From contig CAVYTA010000005.1 in assembly GCA_963771355.1 (NCBI GenBank), positions 512,001 to 576,000 on the forward strand: a stretch of 64,000 bases of DNA. Direction: 5' to 3'. The notes below the pieces were generated by a model. It was given only the letters and a program-made list of their open reading frames with translations, ran no database searches and was not told the DNA's origin. Shown piece by piece: positions 761-2,637 of this stretch. A program made the translations under genes and the position numbers. The DNA is from an uncultured Candidatus Rokubacteria bacterium (GTDB lineage: Bacteria > Methylomirabilota > Methylomirabilia > Rokubacteriales > CSP1-6). Within the stretch, counting starts at the first letter, position 1. Each line of letters starts with the position of its first letter.

Positions 761-1615
761 TCAGGCCCGCGTGCGGGCCGTGAACACGGTGATGGGATAG
801 AGGCAATAATAGTCCGGCCGGGCCAGGATGTGGTCCGGAGAATTCGGCTCGCACAGCGCGGTGCGGCGGCGCCAGTCGTCGTCGCTCAGGAACGGGCGGA
901 GCCGCTCGCCCCAGTTGCGGCCGAACACCACCTTCGCGATGTAGTCGCGCGCGGCGGGCGGCAGCGGCGCGCGCCGGGTGAGCAGGTAGGTGCGCAGCGA
1001 GCAATCGGCGAGGCCGGCCTCGCCGAGGGACTCCAGCGTGCGCTGGCGCCGCTCCTGGAAGCTGCGCTCGCCGGCCTCGTCCCGGCCGCGCTCCGTCTCC
1101 GCCGCCTGGATGCGCCGCTCGAGGTCCGGATGCCCGGGCAGGAAGAGTGCGGACAGCGCCTGCGACTCCTTCACGATCACGCGGCCGCCCGGGCGGAGCA
1201 CGCGCGTGAACTCCTTGAGCGCGTGAGCGGTGTCCGGGATGTGGTGCAGCACGTCCCCGCACCAGAGCCAGTCGAACGTGCCGTCGGGCGCGTCGATCGC
1301 GGTGCCGTCGCCCACGCGAAATTCGAGCCGCGGGGCCGGCAAGGCGGCGCCCGCCAGCGCCCGCGCCGCCTCCACGCGCTCCTCGCCCGGCTCGATGCCG
1401 AGCACGCGTCCACCGGGTCCCACCGCCTGCGCGAGCCAGAGGGTGTAGAGCCCGACGCCGCAGCCTACGTCGAGGCCGCGCGAGCCGGCGGGGAGCTCCA
1501 GATCGGCGACGAGGGTGTGCGCCTCCGGCTCCTGGAAGCGATTCATTCGCTCCAGCGCGCGGGTGAAGGGCTCGGGTTCCGCCGCCGCTCCTCCCGCGGC
1601 GTGATGATGGCTCAT
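761..1615 (-). CDS. Class I SAM-dependent methyltransferase
   Basis: LDVGCGVG motif I, DGTFD and RVLRPGG motifs. Confidence 0.88.
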   Translation of the reverse strand: MSHHHAAGGAAAEPEPFTRALERMNRFQEPEAHTLVADLELPAGSRGLDVGCGVGLYTLWLAQAVGPGGRVLGIEPGEERVEAARALAGAALPAPRLEFRVGDGTAIDAPDGTFDWLWCGDVLHHIPDTAHALKEFTRVLRPGGRVIVKESQALSALFLPGHPDLERRIQAAETERGRDEAGERSFQERRQRTLESLGEAGLADCSLRTYLLTRRAPLPPAARDYIAKVVFGRNWGERLRPFLSDDDWRRRTALCEPNSPDHILARPDYYCLYPITVFTARTRA

Positions 1616-2046
1616 GCGGGCTTCGCCAGCACGTTGACCTTCACCGTGGTCGCGACCGCGACCGTGCGGTAGAGGGGTCAGCGGGCCTGGTAGACCTCGA
1701 CCAGGGACTCCGCCTGCGCCTGGTCTACCCCGTGGAGCTCGAAGCGCATGCGCACCTCGGCGAAGCGATTGGGCTCGGCCACCGCGCGCACGCCTTCGAT
1801 GGTGACCTCGGTTCGCCGGAGGGGCACGCCCTGCTGCTGGGCGTAGAGCTCGATCAGCGTCACGCCGCAGGAGGACACGCCGGCCAGGAAGGCCTCGCCC
1901 GAGGACAGCGCCTCGTGCGGACCCGAGGGCGAGTCGATGACGAAGTGATTCGTGCGCGCCTGATTGAGCGCCCGGCCGGGCAGGCCGCCGCTGTACGAGC
2001 GCACCGTGTCGACCTTGACCTCCTCGCTCCGCTCGGAACTCATCAT
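1612..2046 (-). CDS. OsmC-family protein, probable selenoprotein (UGA at 1678-1680 read as Sec)
   Basis: First Cys in FLAGVSSCG. In-frame TGA sits at the second conserved Cys position (YQAR-U-PLY). The frame continues 21 codons to a TGA overlapping the next ATG (ATGA). A SECIS-like hairpin follows the UGA. Confidence 0.85.
1638..1675 (-). promoter_or_regulatory. Bacterial SECIS-like stem-loop
   Basis: mRNA reads CCUCUACCG-CAC-GGUCGC-GGUC-GCGACC-A-CGGUGAAGG; the apical loop GGUC starts 21 nt after the UGA. Confidence 0.75.
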
Positions 2047-2231
2047 GTATCCGCTCCCCTCGATCTTTGGATGGTCACCTCGCCTCCGGCTTCGGCTCCT
2101 ACTGCGGGCTGCGGCTCGCCAATCACGCTCCGCTCGGAACTCATCATGTATCCGCTCCCCTCGATCTTTGGATGGTCACCTCGCCTCCGGCTTCGGCCCC
2201 TACTGCGGGCTGCGGCTCGCCAATCACGCTC
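2025..2231. repeat. Tandem 2 x 101 bp repeat (plus 5 bp partial), member of a dispersed junction-repeat family
   Basis: Units 2025-2125 and 2126-2226 differ at one base; a related shorter copy lies at 19553-19611. Confidence 0.95.
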
Positions 2232-2637
2232 ATGCGAGGGTGGCCGCGCCCGCGTCGGAGCATTGCTGGTCCTGTTCGCCGGTGCCGCCGCCACAGCCGA
2301 TGCCGCCGATGACCTTGCCCTTGACCACGATGGGCGTGCCGCCGTGGCTCGGCAGCACCTGGCCGGGGAGCACGCTTGCCACGGTGGCGAAGAACACCGA
2401 GCCCTTCTGCGCGCGCTCGGCCAGGTCCGCGGTGGAGGCGCGGAAGTTGGCCGCCGCCGTCGCCTTGGCGCGCGAGGTCTCGGGGCTCAGGAAGCTGGTG
2501 CCGTCCCCCCGCGCCGAGAGGACCAGCCGCCCCGCCTCGTCCACCACCGTCACCGTCATCCCGGTGCCCAGCGCCTTCGCCTTGTCCTGCGCCGCGCGCA
2601 CCGCGCGCTCTGCCATCGCGAGCGTCAGCTCGATCAT
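2230..2637 (-). CDS. GlcG/HbpS family heme-binding protein
   Basis: VTVVDEAG, KATAA and GGTPIVVKGKVIGGIGCGGG..EQD motifs. Confidence 0.9.
   Translation of the reverse strand: MIELTLAMAERAVRAAQDKAKALGTGMTVTVVDEAGRLVLSARGDGTSFLSPETSRAKATAAANFRASTADLAERAQKGSVFFATVASVLPGQVLPSHGGTPIVVKGKVIGGIGCGGGTGEQDQQCSDAGAATLA

Follow-up and report, generated by a model that had tools for sequence, protein, structure and literature searches.

Tandem copies of a dispersed, gene-sense repeat at a glcG-osmC junction of a Candidatus Rokubacteria genome: a probable translational relay and predicted G·A hairpins

How does an operon stay translated when repeated DNA lies at the junction of two of its genes, and what kind of DNA is it? 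The question is raised by a 64,000-nt stretch of a Candidatus Rokubacteria genome, here called the window; the source genome is referred to as G000. On the minus strand of the window, an enoyl-CoA hydratase gene, a GlcG/HbpS-like gene, the repeat, an OsmC-like gene, a methyltransferase gene, and a dienelactone hydrolase gene follow one another. The GlcG/HbpS-like gene (2230..2637, minus strand, 135 aa in the ORF list) matched PF03928 with an E value of 1e-32, and the TGA of its frame (2637-2230) is overlapped by an ATG at 2233. This ATG opens mini-ORF 1 (2144..2233, minus strand, 29 aa), which in turn overlaps the ATG at 2147 of mini-ORF 2 (2043..2147, minus strand, 34 aa). Mini-ORF 2 is ATGA-coupled at both ends and overlaps the osmC ATG at 2046; neither mini-ORF had a Pfam match. 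Three ATGA overlaps connect glcG, the two mini-ORFs, and osmC. The OsmC-like gene (1612..2046, minus strand, 144 codons, PF02566) contains an in-frame TGA at 1678-1680, and its stop is overlapped by the ATG of the methyltransferase gene (1615-761, minus strand).

The repeat consists of two direct copies on the minus strand, unit 1 (2126..2226, 101 nt, of the long subtype) and unit 2 (2025..2125, 101 nt), which are 99% identical and differ by a single mismatch at unit position 28. Tandem Repeats Finder returned a period of 101, 2.0 copies, and a score of 407, far above the other rows among the nine for the window. Unit 2 provides the start codon of osmC and encodes the OsmC N-terminus MMSSERS. 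Because the only start-like codons in the osmC frame upstream of the conserved KVDTV motif are two ATGs, both carried by the repeat, osmC depends on the repeat for its start. An earlier note on this DNA had described the two units with their one mismatch, the three ATGA overlaps, the mini-ORFs, and the MMSSERS terminus, and all were confirmed in the sequence. As judged from sequence comparison, the 202 nt are a local head-to-tail array of a dispersed, gene-sense repeat, whose overlapping mini-ORFs are likely to relay ribosomes from glcG to osmC and so keep the operon translated.

A BLASTN search with the unit found related stretches on five contigs of the source genome, and a profile built from 28 full units gave 65 matches at E<=0.01, compared to 2 in the reversed genome. 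The 65 matches group into 42 arrays (41 after one merge). The usual unit is about 60 nt long and comprises a 29-nt conserved block, a variable spacer, and a 13-nt conserved block; the 101-nt long form is the usual unit with an inner copy of the first block, and unit periods across the family range from 39 to 101 nt. The exact 30-nt core was found in at least 114 stretches. Among the matches listed, 66 of the 80 titled records were Rokubacteria/Methylomirabilota and none was Mycobacterium; the titles of some of the other 14 are suspect, because these records share flanking genes with Rokubacteria/Methylomirabilota records. A degenerate core was present in 18 of 121 related genomes, belonging to 8 of 65 genera and including all eight genomes of the genus. 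The repeat had zero matches in viral contigs and in phage and plasmid collections, and Rfam gave one chance-level match outside the repeat in the window and none in six array loci.

The arrays lie mostly along the direction of the genes around them. With gene calls from our own hexamer model (5200 genes), 27 of the 41 arrays of G000 are sense and 5 antisense between co-directional genes. The corresponding counts were 40 sense and 11 antisense among 76 arrays of other genomes (those of the at least 114 loci with enough flank) and 24 sense and 1 antisense among 44 arrays (79 loci) of a metagenome set; the remaining arrays lie between divergent or convergent genes or were not resolved. These orientation counts are not independent, as 117 arrays fall into 96 junction classes, 50 of them sense and 16 antisense. 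No replication-strand bias was seen along one skew-defined arm of contig C6, where 13 matches are on the plus and 12 on the minus strand. The earlier note had asked for the unit to be searched against the genome and its relatives and would have abandoned its reading had the copies elsewhere been randomly oriented and unconnected with gene junctions; the search instead returned a dispersed, sense-oriented family tied to gene junctions.

Some copies lie in frame within genes, and others lengthen C-termini. At C1:178787-178846 of G000 (L177), a 63-nt unit lies within the gene of a conserved protein, in frame and close to the N-terminal end; this site is filled in four and empty in four of the eight loci aligned. 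Further intragenic copies were seen at C6:2012449 and C6:1024202, and an antisense one at C2:57755. The array at C7:326785-326892 (L187) places an FAD oxidoreductase and a short-chain dehydrogenase in a single frame, at a place where three relatives have a relay, which is either a true fusion or a one-base assembly error. At C6:1683268, a half unit has on either side a copy of the first 40 nt or so of a proteasome alpha-like gene (named from its translation rather than by family search), giving a TGATG-coupled mini-ORF, and at C5:925051 the frame of an acyl-CoA dehydrogenase-like gene is interrupted at a half unit, by biology or by assembly error. Two genomes have a sense element at an ABC-permease junction (L167, L168, L169, L054) where other genomes show an antisense copy that has decayed. 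At the guaA-dnaE junction of G004 (L161), about 1 kb of lower-GC DNA with an ORF stands where relatives carry the repeat.

The glcG-osmC locus was found in six of the seven congeners; of the seven genus members that carry it, three lack a repeat at this place. Two of these empty alleles (G006 and G001) show a plain, direct ATGA overlap between the genes, the kind of orthologous empty site that the earlier note had looked for; in the third (G004), the stop is followed by an SD-like spacer and then by the start. The four filled alleles carry different arrays: the two units of the window, a single near-identical long unit in G002, one short unit extending GlcG and followed by a 10-codon mini-ORF in G005, and two 39-nt half units in G007. 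The relay is kept in all four, one step being a -7 overlap, and copy number at this junction takes the values 0, 1, 101+62, and 2 units. When 202 nt are removed from the window, OsmC begins with MSEEVK, which resembles the empty-allele starts MSDFK and MSAPDVK; the insertion point would therefore lie 7 nt inside osmC, at a copy of the 5-nt direct repeat GAGCG (2227..2231, minus strand; also at 2126-2130 and 2025-2029) marking the limits of the 101-nt duplication. The start codon of mini-ORF 1 would then be the ancestral start of osmC. NTGA flanks several filled alleles on both sides, left boundaries differ among the four filled glcG-osmC alleles, and no clean, shared target-site duplication was found among these four. 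On the genus tree, the distribution at this junction corresponds either to several gains or to one gain and two losses.

Four further junctions likewise have filled alleles in some members of the genus and empty ones in others, with 0-4 units. Over the five junctions together, the relay is present in 17 of the 19 filled sense alleles when TTG/CTG starts and -7/-8 overlaps are allowed; the five were picked partly because G000 showed a relay there, and three ABC loci were left unscored as the anchor motif missed them. In this genus, CTG is apparently the start codon in the CTGA overlaps of three loci (L189, L190, L191).

Family-wide, the relay was scored at 60 co-directional junctions, that is, 67 sense junctions less two judged by eye to be intragenic and five with read-through. 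A tight relay (-4/-1 overlaps, ATG/GTG starts) was found at 24 of the 60, and at 7 of 22 when G000 was taken alone. Downstream frame shifts reduced the 24 to 14 and 8, and flank swaps gave 15.7+-2.7, with 0 of 1000 swaps reaching 24. Inclusion of TTG raised the count to 29, compared to controls of 15, 12, and 18.6. Repeat-free gaps showed a relay in 114 of 1060 cases and antisense arrays in 1 of 14; a shift control placed inside the first unit discriminated poorly (27 falling to 22 and 13). Nine arrays adjoin a TAG without a coupled start. The overlaps behind the non-polar relay proposed earlier are complete at glcG-osmC, and across the family such a relay exceeds controls, but it is not fixed in the family.

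Unit length follows the stop/start content of the unit. Among tandem units without a stop in the main frame, 37 of 53 have a length of 3n, and among units with a stop/start cassette, 13 of 23 are 3n+2 and 10 are not; 4 more units have the stop only. The association between length modulo 3 and the cassette gave Fisher p values of 0.0008-0.0009, and a metagenome replicate (3n in 57 of 71 stop-free units, 3n+2 in 7 of 12 cassette units) gave p values of 0.002 and 0.0004. Without translation of the arrays and loss of polar alleles, such a link is hard to explain. The earlier argument that units of 3n+2 preserve coupling applies to the window and describes a tendency of the family, not a rule.

The candidate ribosome-binding site is more local still. 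In the window, a GGAG, a 7-nt spacer, and an ATG(A) stop/start cassette occupy 2044..2057 in unit 2 and 2145-2158 in unit 1 (minus strand), so that GGAG stands 7 nt 5' of both ATG 2046 and ATG 2147. The predicted duplex of this site with the anti-SD 8-mer has -7.5 kcal/mol, against a genome median of -5.6 (2973 called ATG starts) and -6.0 for the family-consensus site. GGAG occurs 4-10 nt before the cassette start in only 2 of 40 cases, both in this window, and the closest relative's one-unit allele lacks it; when the family consensus is compared by eye, the change that creates GGAG replaces a paired C of hairpin 1 (described below). The idea that the repeat brings its own SD was thus borne out for the window, but the site is an allele of the glcG-osmC locus and not a family trait.

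These data bear on a stricter reading, in which a selfish element is hard-wired to be non-polar: it would target ATGA overlaps exactly, duplicate these on insertion, and supply its own SD, so that coupling is kept without selection. This reading would account for the 20 junctions where an NTG start overlaps the upstream stop and leads into one and the same frame of the element, for the NTGA on either side of several filled alleles, and for a relay that is commoner than chance. However, 36 of the 60 junctions lack a tight relay, the left boundaries at glcG-osmC vary, and arrays also occur in frame in genes, as C-terminal extensions, in antisense, and between divergent or convergent genes; the rarity of GGAG and the ten cassette units outside 3n+2 weigh against it as well. 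We regard this reading as unlikely, and favor a relay maintained by selection on a dispersed repeat.

The conserved blocks were then considered as structures. Standard RNA and DNA folding indicated no significant stability (z -1.3 to +1.4), and none of the 25 longest inverted repeats of the window lies inside 2025-2233. When sheared G·A pairs are allowed, two hairpins can be drawn on the minus strand. Hairpin 1 reads GC-GA-GCC-GCA-GCC-[GNA]-GGC-GA-GGC-GA-GC, and its predicted left arm, placed by family covariation, lies at 2107..2120 in unit 2 and 2208-2221 in unit 1. Hairpin 2 is predicted at 2023..2035 and 2124-2136, respectively, and reads C-GA-GC-[GNA]-GC-GA-G. The long subtype has an extra inner GNA-triloop hairpin (2077..2098 in unit 2, 2178-2199 in unit 1, assigned by eye against the family consensus), which holds the single mismatch between the units.

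Hairpin 1 was counted in 60 copies in G000, compared to 0 in the reversed control. In these copies, pair 7-24 is CG in 41, GC in 10, GA in 7, and other in 2; pair 3-28 is CG in 56, GC in 2, and TA in 2; and pair 8-23 is CG in 54 and TG in 6. The G and A of the loop are invariant, and its middle base varies (A38/C14/G7/T1). In 344 copies from other loci, where the search pattern itself set some of the bases, CG stands at pair 3-28 in 331, GC in 8, and another combination in 5. Of 140 copies of hairpin 2, 91 have the consensus and 17 turn both G·A pairs into G-C at once; as the two G·A positions are Watson-Crick in 21 and 19 copies, one-sided changes are few. All these counts are of copies and not of events. 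The compensatory changes support a fold of the DNA type, with two hairpins that contain sheared G·A pairs and close in GNA triloops; this is what the present analysis adds. The GCGNAGC mini-hairpin and tandem CGAG blocks are NMR-proven DNA folds according to the available portions of PMC13037366 and PMC10085684, respectively. The complementary strand should be unable to form these pairs, so the predicted fold would be possible on one strand only, which we offer as a reason for the one-strand design. Two additional pairings were tried and rejected: for a third stem in the spacer, true halves had no advantage in folding over recombined ones (288 and 180 of 300 were as low), and for an alternative in which the left arm pairs at long range with hairpin 2, position 7 tracks position 24 and not the hairpin-2 loop base.

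A fold could also act in the transcript. The repeat might be an mRNA-level structure, serving stability, pausing, or a protein site, and might have spread as a domesticated operon spacer by gene conversion rather than as mobile DNA. The strong sense bias, the T·G wobble at pair 8-23, the fact that tandem G·A pairs form in RNA as well, the failure to find a linked transposase, and the absence of the repeat from phage, plasmid, and viral collections are all in keeping with such a role. However, close relatives differ by gain or loss of sites, the empty alleles being clean, the distribution is patchy (8 of 65 genera), and there was no Rfam match. Moreover, a GNA triloop with a free middle base is a DNA motif in what is available of PMC13037366 and PMC10085684; the stability of the mini-hairpin is not predicted by conventional models there, and the related RNA counterpart melts at 39 C versus 76.5 C (PMC13037366). 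An mRNA-level role with spread by gene conversion thus seems improbable, slightly more so than the hard-wired element, and mobile DNA remains our preferred reading.

The search for a mobiliser covered several families, and no mobilising enzyme emerged from it. PF01797 was found in 0 of 8 genus genomes. Its apparent enrichment in other carriers (8 of 10) made it a candidate there, which was rejected, as these genes, either IS200-like or bounded by terminal repeats of their own, do not have the element on their flanks; across 26 Y1 loci, there was one element match, at least 1 kb from the gene. PF00078 and PF04480 were absent from G000, and no element was found beside its GIY-YIG loci or beside its PF02371 loci, which are two IS110-family elements at C6:2.705 Mb and C8:62078-63339. 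When predicted proteins were screened with a crude HUH motif, none matched, and no recurring small gene stood beside arrays among the clusters listed. As separate observations, Y1 transposases of about 280-310 aa (L219-L227, L230-L232) have their own terminal inverted repeats, and several copies are inserted just 3' of the same GTPase-like gene. Distinct miniature elements of about 130 nt in G000 (C1:55171-55299, C1:165231-165288, C2:123381-123433, C5:125544-125623, and C5:216680-216803) match the ends of the two PF02371 elements.

We propose the following course of events at glcG-osmC. The two genes would at first have been ATGA-coupled; a unit would then have landed 7 nt into the osmC frame, so that the original osmC start codon came to open mini-ORF 1. 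Slippage in place or unequal recombination, acting at the 5-nt repeat GAGCG, could have added the second unit. The relay would stem from the stop/start cassette that many members carry in the variable spacer, together with purifying selection against polar alleles, and no mechanism would guarantee it. On the non-template strand, some enzyme may recognise the conserved parts as single-stranded DNA hairpins built from GNA triloops and sheared G·A pairs; both spread and sense bias would follow from this. The peptides of the mini-ORFs are probably by-products.

Whether the doubling in the window is real was checked in eight public runs, all examined as contigs (the small-share runs X17-X24 lie outside this set). 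Contigs of X5, X8, and X14 cross the site with a single unit, with either base at the mismatch position, and a contig of X6, from a near-identical strain, crosses it with a 101-nt and a 62-nt unit, both 3n+2. X3 and X12 gave short pieces over a unit-unit junction, the X1 contig ends at the repeat, and in none of the eight runs did a contig bridge the exact 101+101 form. RNA run X15 has contigs on both flanking genes, none of those listed bridging the repeat; its lack of cover at 2063-2113 carries no evidential weight. The spanning evidence called for in the earlier note was thus obtained for two-unit arrays but not for the exact tandem. The one-unit contigs in three of the eight runs, with either mismatch base, could mean that the doubling, though not the repeat itself, is an assembly artefact and that the true allele has one unit. 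Against this, the two window units differ by one base, two-unit contigs or junction pieces came from three other runs, a near-identical tandem may collapse in short-read contigs, and tandem arrays are usual in this family. We give the artefact little credence: two-unit arrays at this site are real in nature, and the exact 101+101 form is the likely allele of the source population.

The in-frame TGA of osmC would encode selenocysteine, since the TGA is conserved, SelA and tRNA-Sec are available, and a hairpin follows the UGA. It was found in 30 of 30 relatives' loci fetched, SelA and tRNA-Sec are both encoded in G000, and the hairpin 3' of the UGA has a z of -2.76. The PF02566 score rises from 36.8 bits up to the TGA to 52.7 bits on read-through; the match to the curated OsmC-related selenoprotein model NF041052 is weak (21.8 bits, below the cut-off of 95). 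OsmC-like selenoproteins appear in the list in the available part of PMC1088965. Past the UGA, the DNA of window 1605-1680 (minus strand) is strongly conserved among relatives and has a SECIS-like fold. That the array is a dedicated regulator tuning expression of this selenoprotein, as suggested earlier on, can be set aside as very improbable, even with a repeat that provides the only osmC start codon and an SD better than the family consensus (-7.5 vs -6.0), because three of seven genus members with the locus carry no repeat there, the family sits at dozens of unrelated junctions (about 96 classes), and the mini-ORFs contain no UGA-Sec or other sensing codons. The repeat tells nothing special on selenoprotein control.

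What the locus does offer is a case, in a phylum unrelated to the mycobacteria, of translational coupling preserved in the manner of MIRUs, together with a natural series of alleles (0, 1, 1+1, and 2 units) at one junction. Through the dependence of unit length modulo 3 on the cassette, selection on translation can be tested simply. Annotation is affected as well: the repeat alters protein N- and C-termini and adds 21 residues in frame to conserved proteins. For repeats in which folding programs see no structure, the covariation supplies a concrete one that is cheap to test, and a handle on their movement.

Among known systems, the family resembles REP/REPIN/BIME in being short, GC-rich hairpin repeats, dispersed, intergenic, and tandem, plausibly handled as single-stranded DNA; unlike REP/REPIN, it has no significant Watson-Crick palindrome, and a cognate RAYT (Y1 HUH) gene is absent from the genus genomes by the PF01797 count. 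Unlike in a MITE, the ends are not inverted copies, and no element lies near the two PF02371 elements of G000. With BOX, RPE, and BRE it shares modular tandem arrays, in-frame intragenic insertions, and N-/C-terminal extensions, but a stop/start relay is not described for those in the accessible part of PMC3184786, the comparison being by description only. The C-G-closed GNA triloop with a free middle base and the tandem sheared G·A pairs in C-GA-G context recall the d(GCGNAGC) and CGAG-block mini-hairpins; a GC-GNA-GC loop, C-GA-G on both arms, and compensatory changes are present here at the level of sequence and covariation. In the portions of PMC13037366 and PMC10085684 available, these folds belong to phage or plasmid replication or transcription origins and a human promoter, not to an interspersed repeat at coupled junctions. 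A literature search, with subscription papers outside its scope, returned nothing on this Rokubacteria family or on G·A hairpins in MIRU-like repeats.

The closest likeness in organisation is to the mycobacterial MIRUs. The MIRU ORF reportedly runs in the direction of the neighbouring genes, as Supply et al. are said to have found in 1997. Our repeat is likewise gene-directed between operon genes. MIRUs measure 40-100 bp, number about 40-50 per genome, and have filled and empty sites with 4-nt direct repeats, as summarized in the part of PMC3184786 available; they insert at start codons, where the MIRU ORF couples to the gene with -4 spacing, in that of PMC12548453. The Rokubacteria repeat has units of 39-101 nt (65 units in 42 arrays), tandem copy-number variation (0, 1, or 2 units at glcG-osmC, 0-4 elsewhere), and -4 overlaps with its neighbours, complete at glcG-osmC and found at 24 of 60 junctions against controls of 8-16; copy number in tandem varies in MIRUs as well. 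It differs in belonging to another phylum (mostly Rokubacteria/Methylomirabilota titles and no Mycobacterium among the matches listed), in that only part of the family relays, and in its modular units with a variable spacer that also lie in frame inside genes. MIRU sites have a 4-nt direct repeat on either side, ascribed to transposition, and here NTGA stands on both sides of some alleles, with boundaries that vary from allele to allele. MIRUs are also transcribed as part of polycistronic mRNA; at glcG-osmC, the RNA contigs listed lie on both flanking genes and none bridges the repeat. Set beside MIRUs by descriptions, the repeat may be said to work like a MIRU and is not classed as one. The principle is not new, as MIRUs are already described as preserving coupling in the accessible text of PMC12548453.

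The predicted fold may extend the parallel. One can tentatively picture a class of non-autonomous elements defined by a non-Watson-Crick DNA fold of sheared G·A stems and GNA triloops, which only the purine-rich non-template strand could adopt and which would be recognised there during transcription by a possibly host-encoded enzyme and delivered to coupled junctions; that such a class exists, and may underlie MIRUs too, we consider a possibility well short of probable. A high-copy repeat of Mycobacterium intracellulare is presumably of the MIRU type. A primer for it holds GAGCGAAGCGA, which has the hairpin-2 design (PMC10117815, in the portion available). If the proposal is true, the same fold in mycobacterial MIRUs would explain MIRU orientation and point to their mobiliser.
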